This document shows positions 24,757-37,256 of a stretch of 64,000 nt of DNA, one piece after another. Below the pieces are notes generated by a model, which was not told where the DNA came from, searched no databases, and worked only from the letters and a program-made list of their open reading frames with translations. The first letter of the stretch is position 1. Each line of letters begins with the position of its first letter. A program made the position numbers and the translations under genes. Source of the DNA: a virus (Duplodnaviria; Heunggongvirae; Uroviricota; Caudoviricetes); the IMG/VR virus record IMGVR_UViG_2657245091_000008. One strand, 5' to 3'.

Positions 24757-25502
24757 CAAGAATCACTAAAGAGCGTATTTCAGATATTATTTCCCGTATC
24801 GAAATGTATGGTCACGGTGCTGGATACACAGCAGATGAAGTATTGGAGCTTGCCAAAATAGCTTTAGCGCCTTGCAAGGATGGTAAAGCTATGACACTGA
24901 TTGACTTGTTAGTGAAGGAATTATCTAAGGGGCGTGGATGGCCTGATGGAAAAGATTTTTGCCATCTATCCATTACGATGCCAGGTAGTAGTCGCGCTAC
25001 GGTTCTTTTTGGTACGCGCCATAAAAATTACCAATCATCAAAGAATTATTCCATTGATGGCATTATTTGCGATATCAGTGACCTTGATCGCAGTGCGTTT
25101 ACATCGGTTGTCACTCGTGAACAGTATGAAGCAGCTCGCATAGCGTCTCAGAAAGTTAAGTCTGAAAGTAAGGCTTACAAGTTAGATTTTGAGCAATGGC
25201 TGGAACAGCAACGCGGGAAAATCGATGTGGACTGCGGTTGTGTGTCTGCGGAAACATTCATGCACTGGTTGCGGGTAGCTTATGAGGCTGGCAACCATCC
25301 GGATTTTCCGGATAGTTCCCAACAATCGCCCAAGAAAAGCGTAAAAACCACTCTGGAAAGAGGCTATCTTGAGGCCGCATTAAAGATTAAGCCGGGCCAT
25401 ACGCTAGGCGTCATTGATGCCATGTTGGTTCATGAAATGGCTAAGGCTTTATTGCCACTGGTAGCAGATCAACATGAGGCGAGTCATGCCAACGAAAGCT
25501 GA
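24735..25502 (+). CDS. Hypothetical protein
   Basis: 255-aa ORF. Confidence 0.5.
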   Translation: MQGNKTMTRITKERISDIISRIEMYGHGAGYTADEVLELAKIALAPCKDGKAMTLIDLLVKELSKGRGWPDGKDFCHLSITMPGSSRATVLFGTRHKNYQSSKNYSIDGIICDISDLDRSAFTSVVTREQYEAARIASQKVKSESKAYKLDFEQWLEQQRGKIDVDCGCVSAETFMHWLRVAYEAGNHPDFPDSSQQSPKKSVKTTLERGYLEAALKIKPGHTLGVIDAMLVHEMAKALLPLVADQHEASHANES

Positions 25503-25770
25503 ACTACAGACGCGTGTAGAGGAACTTGAAAAAGAGAACGCTGGCCTCAAAAAAATGCTGGCCCGGGCAGAAAGGGAGTTGTCCGGCAAACTTCTGCCAG
25601 AAGAACTGCCACCAGCAGATATACCCGAGCGAGTGTCCCGGTGGATGAAATCTTTTTGTTTGCCGTGGGAGACTTTTTGGTGCTACGACCATCGCAGATG
25701 GTGTGATGAGCTTGATAGCAGTTTCCCCTATTTTGCGGAAGGGAACTCTTGCCCTGAATGTAGGAGTTAA
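25474..25770 (+). CDS. Hypothetical coiled-coil / Cys-pair protein (tandem paralog A)
   Basis: C-terminal LPWETFWCYDHRRWCDELDSSFPYFAEGNSCPECRS paralogous to next gene; likely starts at MPTKAEL (25486). Confidence 0.5.
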   Translation: MRRVMPTKAELQTRVEELEKENAGLKKMLARAERELSGKLLPEELPPADIPERVSRWMKSFCLPWETFWCYDHRRWCDELDSSFPYFAEGNSCPECRS

Positions 25771-26075
25771 TGATGACCGGCGAGCTTTATTTTAAAATGG
25801 CACGGGAGCGGCGTGTGCATCTGGATCGGATATTTCATCTCCAGAAGAGAGTAGAAGAACTGGAACGTCGTCTGAACTGTTATCCTGTTGATATGGTGTC
25901 TGCAATACCGCCGATTCCAATAGAAATGCAGATCCGCCTATGGATGGAAGAATATGGAATGCCGTGGGAGATATTTTTCTGCTTCGACCATAAACAGTGG
26001 GTAGATGAGCTGGATAATAGTTTCCCATATTTCACAGAGAACACATGCCCAGTATGCAGGAAGAACGGAATATGA
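25770..26075 (+). CDS. Hypothetical coiled-coil / Cys-pair protein (tandem paralog B)
   Basis: C-terminal MPWEIFFCFDHKQWVDELDNSFPYFTENTCPVCRKNGI. Confidence 0.5.
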   Translation: MMTGELYFKMARERRVHLDRIFHLQKRVEELERRLNCYPVDMVSAIPPIPIEMQIRLWMEEYGMPWEIFFCFDHKQWVDELDNSFPYFTENTCPVCRKNGI

Positions 26076-26596: not shown

Positions 26597-26804
26597 GCAT
26601 CTCTCCCCTTTGAGGTCACAATTAGTGGCCTTAAACAATGTGTTTTCTACCTCGATTTAGCCTTTATTATCGTTTTGCATTTCTCTAATCCGGGCAACGA
26701 GGTTACGCTGATCCGTTGGTGATGAATAGTAGCAAAGCGCACAAAATCATCAGCGGTGGTTGATGTACGTAACGCGTTTGCACCAAAGGTGTCTCTTTAA
26801 TGTA

Positions 26805-26824
26805 TACTGTATAAATGAACAGTA
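26805..26824 (+). promoter_or_regulatory. LexA (SOS) box upstream of humD
   Basis: TACTGTATAAATGAACAGTA = CTGT-N8-ACAG, 20 bp upstream of humD start. Confidence 0.65.
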
Positions 26825-26843
26825 TCATTGAGGTGAAAACGCT

Positions 26844-27233
26844 ATGGGCTTCCCTTCTCCTGCGGCGGATTATGTTGAAAGCCGAATTTCTCTTGATCAG
26901 CAACTAATCAGGCATCCATCAGCAACCTACTTCATGCGGGCGGCAGACAGCCATCACCGTGAGGGAATATTGCAGGGTGCTTTGCTGGTGGTTGATTCTT
27001 CGCTTACTCCAGTTGATGGTTCGCTGCTTGTGTGCGCTATGGAGGGTGAATATCGCATAAAGAGATACCGAAAGTATCCGCGCCAGCACCTGGAGGATTT
27101 AAGCACCGGGAAGAAAGAGGCGTTACCAGTAGATGACGATGGTTACACGGGTAGTAATGCTGTTTTTGGTGTGATCACTCATGTCATCAATGATGCCCGA
27201 AGTGGGGAGTTTGATGATTGTCCGGTCATTTAA
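26844..27233 (+). CDS. humD: HumD, UmuD'-like translesion polymerase accessory protein (LexA/S24 peptidase fold)
   Basis: 129 aa starting MGFPSPAADYVE (UmuD' form without N-terminal cleavage segment); adjacent to phd-doc as in P1. Confidence 0.85.
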   Translation: MGFPSPAADYVESRISLDQQLIRHPSATYFMRAADSHHREGILQGALLVVDSSLTPVDGSLLVCAMEGEYRIKRYRKYPRQHLEDLSTGKKEALPVDDDGYTGSNAVFGVITHVINDARSGEFDDCPVI

Positions 27234-27305
27234 GCTGCAAAGTGCTGGTGCTTTATGCCTGTGAAGTTTATGATTGTGTACACATAACGAGTACACGAGG
27301 TGTTT

Positions 27306-27527
27306 ATGCAGTCCATTAACTTCCGTACCGCGCGCGGCAACCTTTCTGAATTGCTCAACAATGTTGAAGCCGGGGAAGAGGTTGAAATCACCCGCAGAGG
27401 CCGTGAACCAGCAGTAATTGTCAGCAAGGCTACTTTCGAAGCCTACAAAAAGGCGGCGCTGGATGCTGAATTTGCATCCCTGTTTGACACCCTGGACTCC
27501 ACCAACAAGGAACTGGTTAACCGATAA
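27306..27527 (+). CDS. phd: Phd antitoxin (prevent-host-death)
   Basis: [49 protein letters not shown]... essentially matches P1 Phd as I recall it. Confidence 0.9.
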
Positions 27528-27907
27528 TGAGGCATATATCACCGGAAGAACTTATTGCGCTTCATGATGCGAATATAAGCCGCTACGGCGGCCTGCCGGG
27601 AATGTCAGATCCGGGTAGGGCAGAGGCCATTATCGGGAGAGTTCAGGCCAGAGTTGCCTACGAAGAGATCACCGACCTTTTCGAAGTCTCCGCAACCTAC
27701 CTGGTGGCTACTGCGAGAGGGCATATATTCAATGATGCCAATAAGCGTACCGCGCTAAACAGTGCGCTGCTATTTCTACGCCGTAACGGTATACAGGTAT
27801 ATGATTCTCCCGTGCTGGTGGAACTTGCGGTGGGGGCTGCAACTGGTGAAATCCCCGTATCTTCAGTAGCGGAAAAACTACGTGAACTATATGGTTCCAA
27901 TATTTGA
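27527..27907 (+). CDS. doc: Doc toxin (death-on-curing, Fic fold)
   Basis: [39 protein letters not shown]...[23 protein letters not shown] matches P1 Doc; ATGA overlap with phd. Confidence 0.9.
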
Positions 27908-27936
27908 AAAGAAGCCCGCTCAACCAGGCGGGCTTC
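27903..27936 (-). terminator. Intrinsic terminator ending the 31822-to-27943 minus-strand operon
   Basis: On minus strand GAAGCCCGC-loop-GCGGGCTTC followed by TTTTCAAAT. Confidence 0.55.
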
Positions 27937-27942
27937 CTACTA

Positions 27943-29049
27943 TCACTCAATGATTTTTTCTGCTGTCAGCCAGCTAATTTCTTGCCTGTCTTTCGGCGGT
28001 TTTAGCATGTGGGCGTATTCAGCAACATTCTCCCACGGAATTGTTTTTGCCCACTCAACGATAGCATTGTGATCTGCAGTGAAGAGTGGAATGGTGTGCG
28101 ATTTCAACCACTCCAATGTTGTAACGCCATGTTTTTTGGCGTGGTGCTGTGCATGATGCCGGGCTATCACTCGTAATGGCATTATCCATTCACTACCATC
28201 AGGCATCGAAAAGCGCATTGTCTTCGGCATATCTGATTCAAGAACAGCCTCCCTAATACCAGGAAACTCACCAAGAACCATACGACGGTAGTAATCGCTG
28301 TTTTTACCACCATATATTTCTGCAATGTTATCAAGATAACCTTGAGAAATAATGGGGGTATCTTCTGCGTTCAGCTTGATGGCTGTATAAATACCACATG
28401 GATTTTCTTCTGATTTAGCACGACCATGATGGGAATCGTAAAAGTGTCCATGCTCCTCCTCTGAAGGAGCGGACATTAAAAGTATACGTGAATCGTCACT
28501 TACTAACGATGCTCTTAACATGCTGAATAGCCGATCGCCAGCAAGAGCCGCCTCCGTAACAATGATTAAAAGATGTTCAGCATAATATCCACCGAAACCT
28601 TCCTCATAATTTCGGTGATATGGCTTAATTTCGCAGCCCCAATATTCCCGGTAACGATGATTGATGCCGTTTCCATCGACTTTAAAATATTCTCCCAGCA
28701 ATGGGATTCTGTTACTGACTCTATCCCAATACGTACTTATGTATTGGATAACTTGCCTGCGACAATTATAGAACTTTGGGGAAACAATAACCGTTTTAGA
28801 CTCAGGCATCAGGATTGTATAAAGAATACTAATTATAGCGATAACCGTCTTTTGGCCTATCCCTTCAGGAGTGGTGACGCTGACTGCTGAACCTTTTTGT
28901 TGAATCGCCTCAACAATTAGCTTTTGCTGGTGGGTTAACTTAACACCCATCAACTCTTCTGCTGCTAATGCCCAGTCATGGCTATATTTGCTTACCAGCT
29001 CTCTCCACTCTGGTAATTCGGTGATGTTTTTAGGCGTCAGCATCAGCAT
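27943..29049 (-). CDS. Terminase-large-subunit (PacB) ATPase-domain paralog, degenerate, no nuclease domain
   Basis: Aligns with the PacB ATPase domain encoded at 34384-35892 (HQQKLIVEAIQQKGS...; FYDSHHGRAKSEENPCGIYTAI vs FYDSHHSQAKTPDNPKGIWTAI); Walker A becomes EGIGQKT, Walker B LDE becomes VTE; 368 aa vs 502 aa. Confidence 0.6.
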   Translation of the reverse strand: MLMLTPKNITELPEWRELVSKYSHDWALAAEELMGVKLTHQQKLIVEAIQQKGSAVSVTTPEGIGQKTVIAIISILYTILMPESKTVIVSPKFYNCRRQVIQYISTYWDRVSNRIPLLGEYFKVDGNGINHRYREYWGCEIKPYHRNYEEGFGGYYAEHLLIIVTEAALAGDRLFSMLRASLVSDDSRILLMSAPSEEEHGHFYDSHHGRAKSEENPCGIYTAIKLNAEDTPIISQGYLDNIAEIYGGKNSDYYRRMVLGEFPGIREAVLESDMPKTMRFSMPDGSEWIMPLRVIARHHAQHHAKKHGVTTLEWLKSHTIPLFTADHNAIVEWAKTIPWENVAEYAHMLKPPKDRQEISWLTAEKIIE

Positions 29050-29836
29050 CCTCCGCTACCTCTGCCTCCACATCTGCCGCGACTTCATCGGACTGTTCTT
29101 CTTTGGCCTGTTCTGCAATCGCCGCACGGCATTTGGCCCTTGCTGTGGCGATTGCTTCAGCACGCACATCATCAGGAATCGTTGACGTGATATACATATC
29201 CAGTTCTTCGGCGCGGAACACTGTTTGGTCCAGATATTCGCGTAGCATCCAGGTAAATTCGAAATCACACGCGATAATCTCTGCGCTACCTTCTGCACCA
29301 TTTGGGAAATGAATAAATGCCTGTTTAGCCAAACCGATAACACGACATGCGGTTGCCAAAACAGCGACAACCAGATTTACATTTTCACACGCTACGGGCT
29401 GATTAACGCCGGAGATTACTCCATTTAACTGTCGGTTATATGGAAGGTAGTTTGAGATGCGTTCTACGCGCCATGTGCCAGTCAGGCTGCCATTTTTAAA
29501 GATAATTGGTGTAACGGATAGCCCAAGCTCGCGTATAAGTCGTTGCGCTATAGCAGGATCATTAAACAGGTCTAATGCTACACATTCGAAAGACTGCGCA
29601 AGGGCAAACAGTTCTTCCAGAGAGTAGTCTTTGCCCCTGGCGGTGATGTAACGACGAACGCCGCTGTCTGCATCACTCCATATAGCTACGCCATGCTCTT
29701 CATTCAGTTCTTCATTAAAGCCGAGATACGTCATGATAGTGCGTTCAATCGTGTCAAACGGCAGTGACATGTCGGCGTTAACAGCCACCAGCAGGCCATT
29801 ACGCAAGCGGTATTGAATTGTTTTGGTGCTTTCCAT
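29030..29836 (-). CDS. Hypothetical protein with acidic C-terminal tail
   Basis: 268-aa ORF in same operon; C-terminal Asp/Glu/Ala-rich tail. Confidence 0.5.
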   Translation of the reverse strand: MESTKTIQYRLRNGLLVAVNADMSLPFDTIERTIMTYLGFNEELNEEHGVAIWSDADSGVRRYITARGKDYSLEELFALAQSFECVALDLFNDPAIAQRLIRELGLSVTPIIFKNGSLTGTWRVERISNYLPYNRQLNGVISGVNQPVACENVNLVVAVLATACRVIGLAKQAFIHFPNGAEGSAEIIACDFEFTWMLREYLDQTVFRAEELDMYITSTIPDDVRAEAIATARAKCRAAIAEQAKEEQSDEVAADVEAEVAEDADADA

Positions 29837-29842
29837 GTCAAA

Positions 29843-30499
29843 TTACTCCACTACAAACCAGTCACATGCCAGTAAATCAGCAACAGACGGCAACCAAACG
29901 TTGTCTATATTTTGCGCATCCTTCAATACAAAATGGTCGCCATAAGGAACCTGAATGTCGTGGAAATTGACGCACCCAGCTAGAACTAACCAGCAGCATT
30001 GCTTTTCGCCTTTCCACCCGCGTCGAGATACCTTTCTTCCTTCTTTCAACCACGTCAGCGCGACAGAAAAGTCGGCTGCTTCAAGGTCGATTTCTTCTTG
30101 TTGGGTAGTGATACCACCAGCAGAAATAGTTACGTCCCTGGCTGTAATGAATGTCACCCCATTGTGACCTTCAATCCTGAGCGATACCCCATTTTCGAAG
30201 ATGTCGTTAGTTCGACTAAAGCCATCTTTAAATTTCTTTTCTGATAAACAGGACAGATGACCTTCTTCATCAACGACAAGATAGCCGCCAACTTGTGGTA
30301 GGTGTTTTTGCAAAAACATTGCATCAACATAGATTCTTACTCCTTTGGGTTCTGTGACCTCGATTTCACCACAATTAGGCATCACAGGAGTAATACCACC
30401 GATGTATTTGATATTCTTGATTTTCGATGCACTAACGTTTTTGTGAGCTTTGTATTTGGGAAGGAACTTAAAAAGCTCTTTCGTTGCCATGTTATTCAT
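29843..30499 (-). CDS. Hypothetical protein with C-terminal DUF2829 (Tad2-like) domain
   Basis: C-terminus ALTWLKEGRKVSRRGWKGEK...VWLPSVADLLACDWFVVE fits the DUF2829 pattern as I recall it. Confidence 0.5.
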   Translation of the reverse strand: MNNMATKELFKFLPKYKAHKNVSASKIKNIKYIGGITPVMPNCGEIEVTEPKGVRIYVDAMFLQKHLPQVGGYLVVDEEGHLSCLSEKKFKDGFSRTNDIFENGVSLRIEGHNGVTFITARDVTISAGGITTQQEEIDLEAADFSVALTWLKEGRKVSRRGWKGEKQCCWLVLAGCVNFHDIQVPYGDHFVLKDAQNIDNVWLPSVADLLACDWFVVE

Positions 30500-30513
30500 A
30501 GTCTTTTCTCTGC

Positions 30514-31008
30514 TTATAACTTTTCGTACTGAAGCGGTGAACGCTTAATTTCAAAGTGGCCTTCCGATGTGCTACCAAAGCCACCAGCACCACGTTCCGT
30601 TTCGTTGAGTTCCTCAACCTCGACTAGTGAGACTTGTTCAACACGCTCAAAAATGCCTTGCATGACAGCCATTCCAGGCTTGAGACAAACGCCTTCCCCG
30701 CCGGGATCAGTAATCAGTTTTGCCATGATTTCACCGCGATAATCGGAGTCGATAATTCCTACGCAGTTAGCCAGGCGAGTATGTTTTTTGCAGCCCAATC
30801 CGGATCGCGGATAGAGTTTCAGACACCAGCCGGGCGGGATCTCCATAGCCAGTCCGGTATACACCCACCAGCTTGAGGAAATTGCACCATTGCTATCGAC
30901 GCATGGTTTTATTTCAACAGCCTCAAAATCCATCGCCGCCGATCCGGAGGTGGCATAAGCTGGAAGTTTTGCTGCCGGATGTAGGCGTTTCACTTTTACG
31001 TAAATCAT
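30514..31008 (-). CDS. dut: dUTP diphosphatase (trimeric dUTPase)
   Basis: dUTPase motifs: GSAAMD, PRSG, GIIDSDYRGEI, RGAGGFGST. Confidence 0.8.
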   Translation of the reverse strand: MIYVKVKRLHPAAKLPAYATSGSAAMDFEAVEIKPCVDSNGAISSSWWVYTGLAMEIPPGWCLKLYPRSGLGCKKHTRLANCVGIIDSDYRGEIMAKLITDPGGEGVCLKPGMAVMQGIFERVEQVSLVEVEELNETERGAGGFGSTSEGHFEIKRSPLQYEKL

Positions 31009-31481
31009 TGTTTTTTAGCTCTCTGCGTGAAGGTGTAAACCCGACGTTTGATATGTGGAACGGTAGGAACAGGAAGACAGGAACTTTCAATAACTCCTTG
31101 CTCCTCCAGCGATCGCACCGCCCGCAAGAACTGCGACGTGTCGCCGCCAAACTGGCGGGCATAGGTGCTGCCGTTATGAAGTATTTGAGCTATTACCCGA
31201 GCTTTTGTCTGGCTGACACGATATGCGAATAGCCGCACGGCCTCTTCTGGCGCAATCGCTAACTGATAGCCTTTCCCGGCACGGTGTCGAATGAATCCAT
31301 GCGCCAGTAGGTTTTTGAGTTCGTTACGAGTGCGAACAGATCCGTAATCCAGGAAGTGTGGATTGATAACGACTGGCTTAAACCATTCCGTAGGTGCTTT
31401 AGCTAATAGAGCTAACAGCTTCCCGGATAATTCTGGATAGGAAGACGGGTAACAATTCAGAGATGGGTAATAAGTTTTCAC
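31005..31481 (-). CDS. Hypothetical protein
   Basis: 158-aa ORF, overlapping stop/start in operon. Confidence 0.5.
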   Translation of the reverse strand: MKTYYPSLNCYPSSYPELSGKLLALLAKAPTEWFKPVVINPHFLDYGSVRTRNELKNLLAHGFIRHRAGKGYQLAIAPEEAVRLFAYRVSQTKARVIAQILHNGSTYARQFGGDTSQFLRAVRSLEEQGVIESSCLPVPTVPHIKRRVYTFTQRAKKQ

Positions 31482-31822
31482 CGACGCCCCCTTGCAGGAT
31501 ATCGACCTGCATTAGTATCCGGTGCAATAAAGCCGGTAGTGGGGCGAGTGAAAGCGAGATTAATCTTCTCGACCATAGTGCGATAATTTTCCTGATAGTG
31601 GGCCAGGAGTTTTTCGGCGGCAATGATGGTTACTTTCCGGACGTAGCTTTCTGCTTCCTCCAGATTTCGCCAGTTTTTTTCGAGGGTAAACACAGGGACG
31701 GCCTCAAGCCCGGTCATGATGCCGAACACAACGACAGCATGACTGTTCTTAACACCAGCGGCGAAGGTTACGGTGTAACCATCCACCTTGAAGCGTCTTG
31801 ATTCCGTGATTTGACTCTGCAA
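31478..31822 (-). CDS. Hypothetical protein (first gene of operon)
   Basis: 114-aa ORF; operator-like motif about 55 bp upstream. Confidence 0.5.
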   Translation of the reverse strand: MQSQITESRRFKVDGYTVTFAAGVKNSHAVVVFGIMTGLEAVPVFTLEKNWRNLEEAESYVRKVTIIAAEKLLAHYQENYRTMVEKINLAFTRPTTGFIAPDTNAGRYPARGRR

Positions 31823-32924: not shown

Positions 32925-33076
32925 GAAACTATTTGACCTCTATATACAGATGACGCTACGCGAAAAATATAAAAATGACAGGGTAGCTATAAGTTAATTT
33001 TCAAAATACAAGCCTTTGATTCGAGGCACGTATTTTCAGTGATGTCAACACTGTTCATCTACACATGATTATAGCC

Positions 33077-33108
33077 TAACTTTAAATAATGCCAATTATT
33101 TAAAGTTA
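33077..33108. other. lox-like recombination site candidate
   Basis: TAACTTTAAATAAT-GCCA-ATTATTTAAAGTTA, perfect 14-bp inverted arms (or 12-bp arms with 8-bp spacer ATGCCAAT); arms share TAACTT and ATA with loxP arm ATAACTTCGTATA; about 150 bp upstream of cre-like start. Confidence 0.5.
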
Positions 33109-33318: not shown

Positions 33319-34356
33319 ATGAGTAAGAAGTCGATCGAGAAAGAGTACAAACGGTTCCTGCAAACCGCTGAACGGTGGAAAGAGCTGGTGGTCGCAAACT
33401 CTGTTTTCCATGATACCAGTTATGCTGGCGAGGAATTCCGCCATGTTGCATTAACGCATGACCAAAACATATTAGAAGAAGCTGAAAAATGTCTTGCTGA
33501 ATGGAAAGCCTTCGTTGACATGTGCCGCGATGCCGACGGCAAAGCGTCGAACATTGTTGAGTCTGTATATTCTCCGATCCCATTCATCATTGAGGACACC
33601 AATCAAAGCACGCATGTTGTTGTGCAAAGCGCTACAACAACACGTACATTTACACGTGAACAATTGCTCAAAAAATACGACAAAATCATAAAGAAAAGCC
33701 TGAAAAATAGGGTTTTTTCTCAAATTGTAGGTGCTCTTGAAGAAGAACAGCGCTTCTTTGAAGCTGAGCCTGAAGGCGAGATCTACCGGGCGCGTAAAGA
33801 GGCATATACAGATGTTGTGCTGACAACAAACATCGAAGGCAGCAATGCCCTTTCTCGCTTTAGAGTTGGCGCACATGGCGCATTGGTTTTCGCAAGACTA
33901 CCGAAGACAACGATCCCCGTTGTCAATAATGTTGGTGAACGCCGGAGCATTACAATTTATTCAGGCGTCGAATCGGTACCTTGCAGCCTTCTCGGCGATT
34001 TTAACTTATATCGTGTTCGTGACCTGGAAAAACACCAGCCAAGCTACGTTGCGAAGTCGTACATCTTAAGGAACATCGATATTCGCAATGAAAGCCTTAA
34101 GCAGAAATCCGCTAAGATGCTGGAGGATGCCGATCCGGCTATTCGCCATATCATTGAGCGTAAGATACGTACATCACGTGAAGCAATGGCAAGGCTGGAT
34201 AAAATGGATCTGGAATTGTTAGACGTAATGATGGCCTCTGGAGACGACCTGACCGGCATTAAACTGAATGAAGCTCGTAAAAAATACGGCAAAGCAATCG
34301 AAGAACGTTACGGATACACATTCCCCCAAACGCAGTACGCCGCGAAGCTCTGGTAA
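33319..34356 (+). CDS. Hypothetical protein occupying the c1-like position (convergent with pacB)
   Basis: 345-aa ORF; operator-like motif overlaps its promoter region; no HTH recognised. Confidence 0.5.
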   Translation: MSKKSIEKEYKRFLQTAERWKELVVANSVFHDTSYAGEEFRHVALTHDQNILEEAEKCLAEWKAFVDMCRDADGKASNIVESVYSPIPFIIEDTNQSTHVVVQSATTTRTFTREQLLKKYDKIIKKSLKNRVFSQIVGALEEEQRFFEAEPEGEIYRARKEAYTDVVLTTNIEGSNALSRFRVGAHGALVFARLPKTTIPVVNNVGERRSITIYSGVESVPCSLLGDFNLYRVRDLEKHQPSYVAKSYILRNIDIRNESLKQKSAKMLEDADPAIRHIIERKIRTSREAMARLDKMDLELLDVMMASGDDLTGIKLNEARKKYGKAIEERYGYTFPQTQYAAKLW

Positions 34357-34364
34357 TCACAACC

Positions 34365-34390
34365 GGCCCCGCATCGCGGGGCTTTATATA
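34365..34390 (+). terminator. Intrinsic terminator after 33319-34356
   Basis: GGCCCCGC-ATC-GCGGGGC followed by TTTATATAT. Confidence 0.5.
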
Positions 34391-35892
34391 TCCAGATCTG
34401 GCATTTCGATATCCGCCAGAACCTGATCTCGGAAAGTTGCCATTTCGGCACCAATATCTTCATTAGCAGGCACATAGTCCACCAGCATAGTGAAGCAGTA
34501 GGTATCCCATCGGTCAGGCGATTTGATGTTTAGCTTTTGCCGCATGTGCTCTTTGCGCATCATCGCCATTTTCCCTTCCTCATTCAGTAAAAAGGGGATT
34601 TTTGACGCTTGCTCTGCCGTTTTAGGGTCACTGTCTATCCGCATACGCCCTGACTTTATGGCATCACGCGCCATAATATTTGCGTAGGCACGCTGATTAA
34701 CAAATCGCTCCCTGTCTTTGTTCGCAAACATGGGTTTTCCCCACCGAATACGTACCGGGTTCGCACCACGACGCACCAACTGCGCACACGTATCAGAACC
34801 AAAACCATCGGCATCAACCGCGATTGTTATATTCGGGTATTTTTCCGGCGTACATTCGTTATATATAAAGTCAGCAAAGGCCAATGGGTCCATAGTGCCA
34901 GGCATCTCCATTACCTTAAAGTTAACAACGCGCCGCTTATCCCTGTGACCAGATACCTTGCAGATGTTGAGGACCGACTTATCTCGCCCATTACCAACGT
35001 CAGCCGTTGCCACCCATCCCCAGTTTTTCTCCAACAACACCTTGCGGCGAGCAGCGCGATCGCATTCATCACGACCAAGCAAATAGCCGTTAATTTCTCG
35101 TGGGAACTGACCAAGCACCTTGACCATATACTCAATAGAATCGCGCCCACCATATTCCAGAAGCTTCTGCTTGATGAATTGTGGTGTGACGAACGGTGAT
35201 TCTTCCGAGTTAAGAACAATTGCTGTCCAGATCCCTTTCGGGTTGTCTGGGGTTTTTGCTTGAGAATGGTGCGAATCGTAGAAATAACCACTTGGCCTTG
35301 TTGGCTGGGATAGCATCAACATCCGGTTATCTTCTTCAGTAAGAGCACCGGTCATTACGCCGATCGCCTTATCAGATATACCAGATGCTTCATCCAGAAT
35401 TAGAAGCAAATGTGCCGCGTGTTCCCCCGCCAGCGCTTCTTCGTTGCCGAGTCGATAACCTTTGCAGAGAACTTCCCAAATCCCCTTACGGGAGCGCTCA
35501 TAAAACATGGTGTCAGAGAGGACAAAATAGGTCTGCAACCACCCATGACGCTTAACTGCATTCGCCCAATACTGTTTAACGTATTTGAATACGCCTGTTT
35601 TTACCTGGCCTATCTTGTTAGCAACAATGATGACACGGGCATCGGGGAACAGGATCATAAAAATCAACAGCAACATCGCGGTAAGGGACGACTTCCCCGT
35701 TCCGTGTCCGGACGTGACGGTCGTCCTACTCCCCGTTTCCTGCACTGACTGAATGATCTGCTGCTGCTGGTGGGAGGGGAACATCCCAAAAATATCGACA
35801 ACAGCCTGGGTAAAGTTGTAGCGGTATTTGATTACCATATCGCGCCAGCGTGGATCGCTGGTGACGCATTTAATCTTGCGCCCGCCAGCCAT
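34384..35892 (-). CDS. pacB: Terminase large subunit (PacB-like)
   Basis: 502 aa; Walker A VTSGHGTGKSS, Walker B LLLILDEAS, C-terminal acidic nuclease-like residues; directly follows pacA-like gene. Confidence 0.8.
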   Translation of the reverse strand: MAGGRKIKCVTSDPRWRDMVIKYRYNFTQAVVDIFGMFPSHQQQQIIQSVQETGSRTTVTSGHGTGKSSLTAMLLLIFMILFPDARVIIVANKIGQVKTGVFKYVKQYWANAVKRHGWLQTYFVLSDTMFYERSRKGIWEVLCKGYRLGNEEALAGEHAAHLLLILDEASGISDKAIGVMTGALTEEDNRMLMLSQPTRPSGYFYDSHHSQAKTPDNPKGIWTAIVLNSEESPFVTPQFIKQKLLEYGGRDSIEYMVKVLGQFPREINGYLLGRDECDRAARRKVLLEKNWGWVATADVGNGRDKSVLNICKVSGHRDKRRVVNFKVMEMPGTMDPLAFADFIYNECTPEKYPNITIAVDADGFGSDTCAQLVRRGANPVRIRWGKPMFANKDRERFVNQRAYANIMARDAIKSGRMRIDSDPKTAEQASKIPFLLNEEGKMAMMRKEHMRQKLNIKSPDRWDTYCFTMLVDYVPANEDIGAEMATFRDQVLADIEMPDLDI

Positions 35893-37256
35893 TAATCATC
35901 CTCCGGCGGTTCTATCGCGATATCATCATCTCCGGCGTCATACCCTGCATCAGATGCATCATAATCACCGTAAATTTCAGCCGTTGCCGAAGGGTCAATA
36001 TCCAGCTCTTCGTCGTTGGCCTCGAATTCTCCAGCTTTACGCTCGCCATTGCGGTCGTAATCTCCGCACCCCAATTCTTCAACAATGGTTGCCACATCCG
36101 CCCGGCGCTCTGCCAGCCATTGCGGATGGTTAGCCTGAAGCGTTGCAAACTCCCTTGCCTCTTTGTCCAGCTGTTCATCATCAACATCATTGACGTCAGA
36201 AACAGGTGGTTCGAGAAGAGTGATAGCTTTCGCCGCGCGCGCCGCGAGGATAGCCGGGACGCTGACCCCCTGGCGCTCGATGTATTCAGCAACACCGATA
36301 TCATCCAGTTCCTCGCGCTCACGCATACGTATAGCGGCGGCGATAACTCTGGCAGCGCGTGCGTCAGCGCCAATGCGATATTCAATCTCTTTGCCACGCT
36401 GTTCGGCCTGTAGGCGTGCTAATTCGAGTTTTTCTCTGGCCTCAGCCTCTTTGAATGCTTGCTGGCGAGCGCTCTGACGAAGCTTTTCATCCCCCTGTCG
36501 CAGCTTTTGTTCGGACTGATATATAGCTGCCAACCTACTGATAAAATCATTCATGTAGTAGGCCGCGTCACTGATTAGACCGAGAAGGCGCTGCCCAGGG
36601 TGCATTCCTTCTGGCTCTTTATCGCCCAAGGCGTCTATTTCCGCCTGTAGACGTTCGGCCTCCTGATCAACAATGCTTTGATACTGAAGTGCGCGCTCTT
36701 GCGCCATTTGAATTGCTAACCGCAGGTGTTCTTCTGCGCCGTTCTTCATCATATCGCGAGCCACATTCGTAGTGGGCAATGTGGCACGCTGCACAGCACC
36801 GCCAGGGATCATTGCTGAAGATCCCTCAATTTTTGGGGCGCTTTTATCTTCTTCGGGGATCATTTTCGCCATTTTTTCGCGCAATGATCTCCTGACAGAT
36901 TCTTTTATCTCATTGTTATTATTGGTATTACTTTCATGATCCGAAGTTTTCTTTCTTGGCATACTTCGGAAAGAACCTGCACCCTGCGAATTGTCAATTT
37001 CTGTAAATTTTGTTTTTTCTGCACCCTCTTCCAGCTTTTTTGTTGCTCTTCCCGCCCGTTTTTTTTCAGGTGATTTGGTGCTTTTTTTTGTTGTCTTTAC
37101 CTGCGACCGCACCTCATTTTTTTTCATATTGAGATGCTTTCTGGCTGTATTGAAGCTAAGACCATGCTCCTCACAGTATTCCTTTACAGTGATCCCTTTT
37201 TCTTCACGCAACGCTATAAAGCGGGCGCGGTGCTCCTCCCAATTAACCAGACTCAT
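35892..37256 (-). CDS. pacA: Terminase small/pac-recognition subunit (PacA-like)
   Basis: 454 aa; N-terminal HTH-like region, highly acidic C-terminus; GATC-rich pac-like cluster inside 5' part; ATGA coupling with lpa-like gene upstream. Confidence 0.7.
   Translation of the reverse strand: MSLVNWEEHRARFIALREEKGITVKEYCEEHGLSFNTARKHLNMKKNEVRSQVKTTKKSTKSPEKKRAGRATKKLEEGAEKTKFTEIDNSQGAGSFRSMPRKKTSDHESNTNNNNEIKESVRRSLREKMAKMIPEEDKSAPKIEGSSAMIPGGAVQRATLPTTNVARDMMKNGAEEHLRLAIQMAQERALQYQSIVDQEAERLQAEIDALGDKEPEGMHPGQRLLGLISDAAYYMNDFISRLAAIYQSEQKLRQGDEKLRQSARQQAFKEAEAREKLELARLQAEQRGKEIEYRIGADARAARVIAAAIRMREREELDDIGVAEYIERQGVSVPAILAARAAKAITLLEPPVSDVNDVDDEQLDKEAREFATLQANHPQWLAERRADVATIVEELGCGDYDRNGERKAGEFEANDEELDIDPSATAEIYGDYDASDAGYDAGDDDIAIEPPEDD
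36800..36945. other. pac-like packaging site candidate (cluster of GATC-containing hexamers)
   Basis: Five GATC within about 140 bp (36807, 36820, 36858, 36886, 36938), four in TGATC(C/T) hexamers, inside the 5' region of pacA as in P1. Confidence 0.4.

Follow-up and report, generated by a model that had tools for sequence, protein, structure and literature searches.

A probable non-catalytic paralogue of the PacB terminase ATPase domain encoded by P1/D6-type phage-plasmids

Gene Organization of the Locus

The window analysed here is a 64,000-nucleotide stretch of Caudoviricetes DNA (IMG/VR record IMGVR_UViG_2657245091_000008), in which an ORF of 368 amino acids occupies 27943..29049 on the minus strand. 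From the ORF list, BLASTP and PHROG 5902, it was assigned as a paralogue of the N-terminal part of PacB ("pseudo-terminase"). Translation likely begins at the ATG at 29043, giving a product of 366 amino acids, because a GGAGG lies 6 nt upstream of this codon and the homologues in databases are 366 amino acids long. Immediately upstream lies an isaA homologue of 268 amino acids (29030..29836, minus strand), identified by PHROG 2326 and by sequence comparison, whose product shows 48% identity to P1 IsaA and 95% identity to D6 orf113. Direct reading of the sequence revealed that the stop of the isaA homologue overlaps the start of the paralogue, which suggests translational coupling between the two genes. 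The same order, isaA and then the paralogue, was found in P1-type elements.

The minus-strand genes from cre through the paralogue are tightly packed or overlapping in the ORF list, and the cre-dut-isaA genes are probably co-transcribed with the paralogue as the last gene. A scan detected a sigma-70-like promoter upstream of cre (TTGGCA-16-TATAAT, 11/12 matches; 33068..33095, minus strand), which is a candidate, by consensus match only, for the promoter of the cre-orf117-orf116-dut-DUF2829-isaA-paralogue operon. Just past the stop codon of the paralogue, scanning and sequence reading showed an intrinsic-terminator-like hairpin (GAAGCCCGC-loop-GCGGGCTTC, then TTTT; 27907..27936, minus strand) that would mark the end of the operon. 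The P1 C1-operator consensus had no occurrence within the window, and thus the regulation of the paralogue could not be inferred by that route.

The catalytic parent-type gene of the window encodes an intact PacB of 502 amino acids (34384..35892, minus strand), in which GHGTGKS, LDEAS and a nuclease domain are all present. It is 56% identical to P1 PacB, matched terminase PHROG 2, and gave a sub-threshold match to Pfam Terminase_6N (19.6 bits; cutoff 22). The pac-recognition subunit PacA (454 amino acids; 35892..37256, minus strand) was located from the ORF list and is annotated as "DNA pacase A subunit" in a 99.8%-identical plasmid; it is a possible binding partner of the paralogue. An earlier note on this DNA had described the paralogue as lying next to pacA/pacB, which does not hold: in the ORF list the distance to pacB is about 5.3 kb, and the cre operon and a c1-like gene intervene.

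Homology to PacB and Predicted Fold

To the PacB of the window, the paralogue showed 88/258 identities by BLASTP (34%, E=2e-52), in agreement with the identity of about one third to the PacB ATPase domain that had been estimated by eye. The aligned span was restricted to residues 7-263 of the paralogue and 8-264 of PacB. Blocks common to both proteins comprise the N-terminal helices, motif III S-x-P, FYDSHH, (A/S)E(D/E)SP and YGG...G.FP, and the FYDSHH...NP.GI.TAI block pointed out in the earlier note was seen in the BLASTP alignment. The paralogues were 34-36% identical to P1 PacB and D6-type PacB alike over about 260 amino acids, and therefore no target specificity is visible in them.

The AF2 model of the paralogue had a mean pLDDT of 87.7, with values of 93-99 over most of the N-domain, and fits solved large-terminase ATPase domains. 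The top PDB matches by Foldseek were the TerL ATPase domains of P74-26, Sf6, D6E, HK97 and T4 gp17 (probability 1.00; target-normalised TM-score of 0.64-0.68 to P74-26), all of the top 30 PDB matches were TerL proteins or TerL ATPase domains, and the Avs3-bound terminase 8dgc was among the fold matches. The N-terminal domain (aa 1-265; 28255..29049, minus strand) thus has the terminase-large-subunit ATPase fold of the ASCE/RecA-like type, according to AF2 and Foldseek, combined with non-catalytic motifs.

Profile searches, which the earlier note had proposed along with structure prediction, gave a divided answer. No Pfam profile matched the paralogue at E<=1, the gathering threshold of Terminase_6N / TerL_ATPase was not reached, and neither Pfam nor NCBIfam supplied a functional label. 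Terminase PHROG 2 matched at 1.9e-10, and PHROG 5902 ("unknown function") matched at E=1.7e-133, with aa 7-367 aligned to profile positions 3-358 of 359; PHROG 5902 was also matched by the PacB of the window, so that this profile is not specific to the dead clade. Against the defence-protein models of PADLOC-DB, neither the paralogue nor IsaA nor the DUF2829 protein gave a match (E<=0.1).

Loss of Catalytic Residues

The altered Walker A and the lost Walker B Asp claimed from the letters alone were both confirmed in the alignments. The Walker A-equivalent TPEGIGQKT (aa 60-68; 28846..28872, minus strand), which stands opposite SGHGTGKS of PacB, has Gln at the position of the P-loop lysine, and the Walker B-equivalent LLIIVTEAA (aa 160-168; 28546..28572, minus strand), opposite LLLILDEAS, has Thr for Asp. 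When 12 paralogues were compared with 34 PacB-type proteins, GK[ST] was missing at the Walker A site in 12/12 paralogues (GIGQKT in the window; GIGRPQ, GVGTTT and similar in other family members), whereas G.GK[ST] was kept in all 34 terminases. Likewise, the acidic pair of Walker B was gone in every paralogue (12/12; IIVTEAA in the window, and VDSA, LNAS, PNAN, LHAA and similar elsewhere), whereas [DE]E was present in 34/34 PacB-type proteins.

The positions conserved in PacB only were S60, G61, H62, K66, H156, D165, E166, S168 and T196; D165 and E166 are thus conserved in the PacB-type proteins but not in the paralogues. The conservation comparison showed that the loss of residues is restricted to the ATP site and that other conserved positions are retained; of the 29 positions that both groups conserve, 13 fall in the lid segment (aa 200-265). 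With none of the conserved ATP-site residues left and no nuclease domain, the paralogue can serve neither as a packaging motor nor as a pac nuclease. Taken together, it is very probably a non-catalytic paralogue of the PacB ATPase domain.

C-Terminal Domain X and Domain Shuffling

The C-terminal nuclease domain is absent, as the earlier note had stated, but the protein is not a simple truncation, because a separate conserved domain of about 100 amino acids, unmentioned there, occupies this position. This domain, termed X (aa 266-368; 27946..28254, minus strand), carries the motif MPDGSxW...PLF...W and is unrelated to the nuclease domain: BLASTP revealed no similarity to the PacB nuclease domain past residue 264 of the paralogue, and the possibility that X is a shrunken nuclease domain was ruled out by hhalign of the C-domain profile (probability 0.6%). 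No sequence relative of domain X was found in the PDB, and no significant match in Pfam (DUF5076 only, E=0.065, 13.6 bits; cutoff 25). Domain X matched positions 399-486 of phrog_17928, and its pLDDT in the AF2 model was just 52-80.

The two domains occur in several combinations. Domain X follows the dead ATPase domain in the window, P0004 and P0007, and precedes it in P0025; the dead ATPase domain stands alone (about 263 amino acids) in P0008, P0009, P0011, P0014 and P0016, and is joined to a different domain of 180 amino acids in P0012. Stand-alone homologues of domain X, of 100-158 amino acids, were found in P0077, P0120, P0130 and P0135, where their genes lie in strings of small ORFs, close to an H-NS-like gene; these contexts were uninformative.

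Distribution and Genomic Contexts

The family was revealed by an exhaustive search of representatives; a word-indexed homologue search gave few matches. A full-length paralogue was present in 163 plasmid records, compared with 455 that carry isaA and 790 with any PacB-like match. About a third of the isaA-carrying plasmids have the paralogue and two thirds do not. Among 5426 complete E. coli genomes, it was found in 94, on plasmids only.

The lack of such a paralogue in P1, to which the earlier note pointed, is true of laboratory P1; among natural elements, however, a 49%-identical version lies between isaA and hxr in about 120 P1-type plasmids and in two P1-like phage records. Natural P1 and reference P1 cease to be homologous exactly at the isaA stop and become so again at hxr, and in reference P1, which has one PacB-like locus only, IS1 and isaB occupy precisely this slot. 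P1 isaB was ruled out as a remnant of the paralogue, since tblastn and blastn gave no match. The paralogue is also absent from phage D6. The isaA-IS1-isaB segment is one of eight hypervariable regions in P1-like phage-plasmids, together with res-mod, sim and the tail fibres (PMC9603915).

The neighbours of the paralogue are always non-packaging genes: it lies downstream of isaA, dnaB/ban, ref or a radical-SAM gene, and some family members are directly downstream of a DnaB helicase gene or overlap a RecA-dependent-nuclease gene. Placement in a packaging operon beside the recognition subunit was not encountered, the gene lying outside lpa-pacA-pacB. Wherever this could be checked (the window, the P1-type records and L009), a pacB-type terminase is encoded on the same element. 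The paralogue is an optional, polymorphic accessory gene of P1/D6-type phage-plasmids.

Selection and Allele Diversity

In the comparison of 12 paralogues with 34 PacB-type proteins, 11 paralogues formed a single clade, and this PacB-N-like clade is so far known only from P1-like phage-plasmids. In at least five lineages the ORFs have stayed intact while synonymous sites diverged to saturation (dN/dS 0.06-0.3), and dN/dS of the paralogue was 0.27 in the N-domain and 0.06 in the C-domain, with dS saturated. In the phage record vB_EcoM-813R1 the C-terminal domain is frameshifted. By these sequence comparisons the family is old, intact and under purifying selection, with the loss limited to the ATP site, so the word "degenerate" in the earlier note does not apply in the sense of a decaying gene.

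Between the window and pS143-4, the identity of the paralogue was 53% in the N-domain and 97% in the C-domain, whereas PacB was 97.8%, PacA 93.8% and the flanking genes 97-100% identical. Variation in the N-domain does not track that of PacB and PacA on the same element and so gives no indication of tight binding to the resident machinery, and the contrast between 53% for the N-domain and 98% for PacB speaks against a regulator devoted to the element's own PacA/PacB.

Possible Functions

The best explanation as a whole, which is tentative and falls a little short of an even chance, is that the protein is a non-catalytic paralogue of the PacB ATPase domain that functions by binding only and modulates or interferes with packaging. 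It would act through surfaces inherited from PacB, and its target would be a component of pac-type packaging, namely PacA, PacB subunits, pac DNA or the portal, such binding modulating or poisoning the process. The most likely setting would be competition among related elements sharing one host, and the variable C-terminal domain may add a second activity. Interference with packaging as the actual mechanism is possible, although somewhat doubtful. The packaging decoy, inhibitor or regulator that the earlier note put forward would fit a gene that is accessory and polymorphic and whose domains have been shuffled. A broader reading, in which a polymorphic pseudo-terminase serves as a weapon or shield in conflict, either poisoning the packaging motor or pacase of rival P1-like elements in a shared cell, so that they are excluded at the packaging step with a specificity set by the N-domain alleles, or blinding Avs1-3 and Upx, is rather unlikely.

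The shield alone, an anti-defence decoy or sponge, would be a look-alike that binds the terminase-ATPase sensors Avs1-3 and Upx without activating them. It would be made before or without the real terminase, and with neither bound ATP nor a nuclease it would leave the sensors inactive. The terminase ATPase domain by itself suffices to trigger EcAvs2 and Upx, Avs2 and Avs3 sense terminase-bound ATP and the active site, and vs.8, Ksap1 and Ksap2, which are terminase-like non-terminases, may be anti-defence factors (bioRxiv 10.64898/2026.04.30.721860). Exactly these sensed features are gone from the paralogue while the fold is kept; the match to Avs3-bound 8dgc and the accessory, polymorphic nature of a gene located in a hypervariable region are likewise consistent with a decoy. 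However, loss of the ATP site should also abolish the contacts with Avs2 and Avs3, and a protein that does not bind cannot be a sponge; the loss could equally reflect selection just to avoid triggering Avs. A decoy is unlikely.

The genomic contexts point to DNA metabolism at least as much as to packaging, the neighbours being ssb, dut, ban, ref and isaA. Accordingly, the paralogue could be a neofunctionalised, non-enzymatic DNA-binding or scaffold factor that takes part in replication, recombination or plasmid maintenance together with IsaA and, in other lineages, DnaB/Ban or Ref. The apparent translational coupling with isaA, found in P1-type as well as D6-type elements although the genome position differs, would fit such a role, as would the presence of cre and dut in the same operon and the DnaB helicase and RecA-dependent-nuclease genes adjoined or overlapped by its relatives. 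On the other hand, IsaA does not need the paralogue, as two thirds of the isaA plasmids are without it; the family has been seen only in elements that have a PacB-type terminase, a restriction not expected of a generic DNA factor, and a housekeeping accessory protein would not usually show such allele diversity in its N-domain. This possibility was also considered improbable.

A dedicated regulator of the element's own pacase, for example one that holds PacA or caps PacB to time pac cleavage, would explain the conservation of the PacB-like N-terminal helices and lid segment. In addition, the P1-type gene follows ssb, whose promoter has a C1 operator (P1 annotation), and would be switched on with the early lytic genes. 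Such a regulator is nevertheless very unlikely considering the divergence of the N-domain beside nearly identical PacB and PacA, the fact that most P1/D6-type elements, among them the plaque formers P1 and D6, do not carry the gene, and the finding that P1 isaA and isaB are non-essential in knock-downs (PMC10695390). Finally, a functionless, decaying copy of pacB, as the missing catalytic motifs and nuclease domain and the frameshift in vB_EcoM-813R1 might imply, is hardly tenable and already contradicted by the intact ORFs under constraint, a monophyletic clade with its own conserved positions, the confident AF2 model, and the preserved Shine-Dalgarno sequence, coupled start and terminator.

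Significance

Large terminases are usually seen as single-copy, essential motor-nucleases, and here a clade of their ATPase domain has long been kept after catalysis was lost. Domain shuffling and divergent alleles in near-identical phage-plasmids point to a binding function under conflict-type selection. Literature searches on isaA/PacB, terminase decoys, terminase-like paralogues and D6 found no description of the gene or the family; laboratory P1 lacks the gene because IS1 and isaB are in its slot, which may explain why the family has gone undescribed. Since terminase ATPase domains are major targets of Avs1-3 and Upx, the tractable P1/D6 system could reveal the roles of look-alikes. Interference with packaging, if true, would bear on transduction and on competition among P1-like plasmids with resistance genes. 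A conflict role, if true, would make this the first terminase-derived pseudoenzyme with such a role and would suggest a function for terminase-like accessory proteins such as T4 vs.8.

Comparison with Known Systems

The likeness to PacB of P1 and D6 consists of homology over the ATPase domain (34-36% over about 260 amino acids) and the same fold. The paralogue differs in lacking the Walker A lysine, the Walker B Asp/Glu pair and the nuclease domain, in its extra, unrelated C-terminal domain, in its optional status and in its location outside the lpa-pacA-pacB operon. P1 PdcB has a similar place downstream of phd-doc and a similar length (347 amino acids), but its orientation relative to doc is opposite; identity with P1 pdcB, suspected because the paralogue follows doc, was ruled out by the lack of similarity to PdcB or PdcA (BLASTP, E<=0.01) and by the single PacB-like locus of P1.

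SaPI Ppi and PICI Rpp are proteins of mobile elements that bind a terminase component and block or redirect packaging. Their targets are small terminases, and they are not themselves homologous to terminases; the likeness lies in the concept of interference that the earlier note invoked. Packaging ATPases of the phi29 gp16 type likewise combine a terminase-like ATPase domain with a small C-terminal domain and have no nuclease domain, but they are active motors with intact Walker motifs and are essential for packaging.

Ksap2 is a KpAvs2-stimulating protein of Stephanstirmvirinae (PMC11564622); it, too, is an accessory phage protein restricted to one lineage, and it bears some structural likeness to a terminase ATPase domain. 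The nearest analogue, as compared by description, architecture and context, is T4 vs.8, a so far uncharacterised stand-alone protein that is paralogous to the gp17 terminase ATPase domain (bioRxiv 10.64898/2026.04.30.721860); it is also a lineage-restricted, TerL-ATPase-like non-terminase. However, T4 vs.8 keeps Walker A and Walker B, activates EcAvs2 and derives from another terminase lineage, whereas the P1/D6 paralogues have lost both motifs (12/12), are of the PacB type and often carry an added domain.

Homology, fold and ends of the ORF

The ORF at 27943-29049 (minus strand), which the earlier note had described as a degenerate terminase paralogue without a nuclease domain, was present in the ORF list, and its likeness to the ATPase domain of PacB (34384-35892, minus strand), the intact large terminase of the window, was confirmed by BLASTP with 34% identity across 258 residues (E=2e-52; residues 7-263 only). 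In the alignment, both altered Walker motifs were recovered, PacB SGHGTGKS standing opposite TPEGIGQKT (Walker A) and LLLILDEAS opposite LLIIVTEAA (Walker B). Beyond residue 264 no resemblance to PacB was detected. The claimed loss of the nuclease domain therefore held, but not a simple truncation, because the C-terminal part forms a separate domain of approximately 100 aa (domain X). The protein probably starts at the ATG at 29043, with GGAGG 6 nt upstream, and in the window sequence a strong hairpin and T-run follow the stop codon.

A Pfam search with the paralogue found no family; PHROG 5902 ('unknown function') matched it end to end, and terminase PHROG 2 at 1.9e-10. The AlphaFold2 model, built from an alignment of 51 sequences, had a mean pLDDT of 87.7 (93-99 for most of the ATPase-like domain), and its top solved-structure matches were all large-terminase ATPase domains (P74-26, Sf6, D6E, HK97, and T4 gp17). 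Database entries label the family 'hypothetical protein' or, wrongly, 'terminase large subunit'.

Domain X (27946-28254, minus strand; MPDGSxWxVP...T.PLF...DWA.NNMNW.DV) is an uncharacterised independent phage domain that showed no relationship to the PacB nuclease domain and is also known as stand-alone proteins of 100-158 aa, the small proteins P0077, P0120, P0130, and P0135 being examples. It also forms the end (~400-505 of 511 positions) of phrog_17928, a PHROG family of unknown function. On a GCA_024867085.4 contig (10001-10741), one ORF carries domain X first and then a dead ATPase-like domain, which ends after ~140 aa, interrupted by unrelated DNA. It seems that the two domains move as a pair, whichever comes first.

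Loss of the ATP site in the paralogue family

An exhaustive HMMER search revealed 905 relatives. The nearest were non-terminases in several architectures: ~263-aa proteins terminating directly after the ATPase-like domain, 364-366-aa proteins built like the window paralogue, a single 444-aa protein with another C-terminal domain, and a single protein with domain X ahead of the ATPase-like domain. When paralogues and PacB-type terminases were placed in a neighbour-joining tree by their ATPase regions, 11 of the 12 paralogues grouped in one clade. None of the 12 had the Walker A lysine or the Walker B acidic pair, in agreement with the proposed loss of catalysis, whereas G.GK[ST] and [DE]E were present in 34/34 PacB-type terminases. 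Column statistics showed that the positions conserved only in PacB were S60, G61, H62, K66, H156, D165, E166, S168, and T196; the loss of conservation in the paralogues is restricted to the ATP site. The last third of the domain, with its FYDSHH, (A/S)E(D/E)SP, and YGG...G.FP blocks, accounts for 13 of the 29 positions conserved in both groups.

The term 'degenerate' was not borne out. Between lineages the paralogue ORFs are intact although synonymous sites are saturated, and the sole non-saturated comparison gave a dN/dS of 0.27 for the ATPase-like domain and 0.06 for domain X; the paralogue is a maintained pseudoenzyme rather than a decaying copy. In phage vB_EcoM-813R1 (ON470617.2, 6778-7052), the paralogue is frameshifted inside domain X (tblastn gave two pieces, each in its own frame), possibly by sequencing error or early decay.

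Distribution and genomic slots

Full-length copies were found by tblastn on 163 plasmid records (about 10 at ≥80% identity, 34 at 60-80%, and ~120 at ~49%), compared with 455 records for isaA and 790 with any PacB-like match. Among 5426 complete E. coli genomes, 94 carried the paralogue, on plasmids only. In P1-type elements, such as MH422554.1 (5971-7096), the ~49% clade immediately follows isaA in the ssb-hxr interval; in reference P1 (NC_005856.1, 4033-5744), IS1 and isaB fill exactly this slot, and no paralogue remnant was found there. Homology between natural and laboratory P1 is lost at the isaA stop codon and regained at hxr. Laboratory P1 lacks a gene that ~120 P1-type plasmids have, and phage D6 has a pdcA-like fragment in its place. 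The gene may have gone unnoticed because both model phages lack it. More remote members of the family follow a DnaB/Ban-like helicase gene, overlap a gene for a Ref-like RecA-dependent nuclease (the element concerned also encodes PacB, C1, and a Cre-like integrase), follow a radical-SAM gene, or lie within a long accessory-gene run; no family member was located in a packaging operon. P1-like phage-plasmids have eight hypervariable regions, of which isaA-IS1-isaB is one (PMC9603915).

Host element and gene neighbourhood

The window belongs to a D6-type phage-plasmid of the P1 family. Across 26800-31500, it shared 99.8% identity with E. coli plasmid NZ_CP031917.1 and 95.6% with phage D6, the latter over only 65% of the length. 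The plus-strand genes humD-phd-doc are followed by a minus-strand block of cre, orf117, orf116, dut, DUF2829, isaA, and the paralogue, with a c1-like gene, pacB, and pacA (35892-37256, minus strand) on the far side of cre.

The DUF2829 gene of this operon (29843-30499, minus strand) is also hypervariable, encoding 218 aa in the window and 146 aa in D6 and plasmid pS143-4 (68% identity across the common part), despite flanking genes of 97-100% identity; PGAP names its NZ_CP031917.1 counterpart 'MW1434 family type I TA system toxin'. Two adjacent small ORFs (25474-25770 and 25770-26075, plus strand; 98 and 101 aa), apparent tandem paralogues, share the C-terminal sequence W..F.C.DH..W.DELD.SFPYF.E...CP.CR, which may bind zinc. 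Between cre and pacB, at the position of c1 in P1, a 345-aa ORF (33319-34356, plus strand) had no Pfam match at E≤0.01; a similar 344-aa protein, in an element with PacB and a ref-linked paralogue, carries Phage_P7_repressor_C1. The 17-bp P1 C1-operator consensus was found nowhere in the window with 3 mismatches allowed. In pS143-4 (NZ_OY757108.1, 1533-2741), an insQ-type (IS200/IS605 family) transposase gene, absent from the window, lies between the c1-like gene and pacB.

Allele polymorphism

Between the window and pS143-4, the proteins were nearly identical for Cre (99.7%), orf117 (100%), Dut (99.4%), IsaA (96.9%), PacB (97.8%), PacA (93.8%), and domain X (97.1%), in contrast to 53.3% for the ATPase-like domain. 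The dS was 1.4 for the latter and 0.2 for domain X, and therefore the N-domain alleles are old and were exchanged by recombination. D6-type backbones carry at least four of them (overall identity 99, 88, 81, and 65%). P1-type and D6-type PacB are equally far from the paralogues, and the polymorphism is uncoupled from the resident terminase.

Proposed role

The paralogue cannot hydrolyse ATP in the manner of PacB or use a terminase nuclease domain to cleave DNA. Its fold and conserved non-catalytic surfaces are preserved, and selection maintains the gene, which is optional, modular, and polymorphic. The protein would act through binding. The most economical partner would be a pac-type packaging component (PacA, PacB subunits, the portal, or pac DNA), since the family has been seen so far only in elements with PacB-type terminases and the lid region is most conserved, and the result may be packaging that is modulated or poisoned. 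We tentatively favor such interference in competition between related elements, at somewhat below even odds; this is preferred to a housekeeping regulator, as the ATPase-like domain does not vary in step with the resident PacA and PacB.

A sponge for terminase-sensing immune receptors is unlikely. The idea is attractive, since the ATPase domain is what Avs2, Avs3, and Upx detect, but it is weakened because the ATP-site features read by Avs2/Avs3 are exactly those that the paralogue lost. Rather improbable, too, is a DNA-metabolism factor working with IsaA, Ban, or Ref. The paralogue start codon overlaps the isaA stop codon in the window, an apparent translational coupling found in P1-type and D6-type elements alike. 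IsaA as partner is only hinted at: isaA is 3 times as widespread, and Foldseek gave no PDB counterpart for the IsaA model (pLDDT 82.8). Regulation of the resident pacase by the paralogue appears quite improbable. A pseudogene can practically be discounted, given the intact ORFs.

Comparison with known systems

The paralogue is a homologue of the PacB N-domain and shows only one of the five features that define large terminases. Satellite proteins that interfere with packaging act on the small terminase and are not homologous to terminases. No description of the paralogue family was found in the literature. Its nearest functional analogue there is the functionally uncharacterised T4 vs.8, which is a stand-alone gp17 ATPase-domain paralogue, activates EcAvs2 and, unlike the paralogue family described here, retains the Walker motifs (bioRxiv 10.64898/2026.04.30.721860); Ksap2 weakly resembles the terminase ATPase domain (PMC11564622). 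We assign the paralogue to the terminase-ATPase-like accessory proteins, here as a conserved pseudoenzyme with shuffled partner domains.
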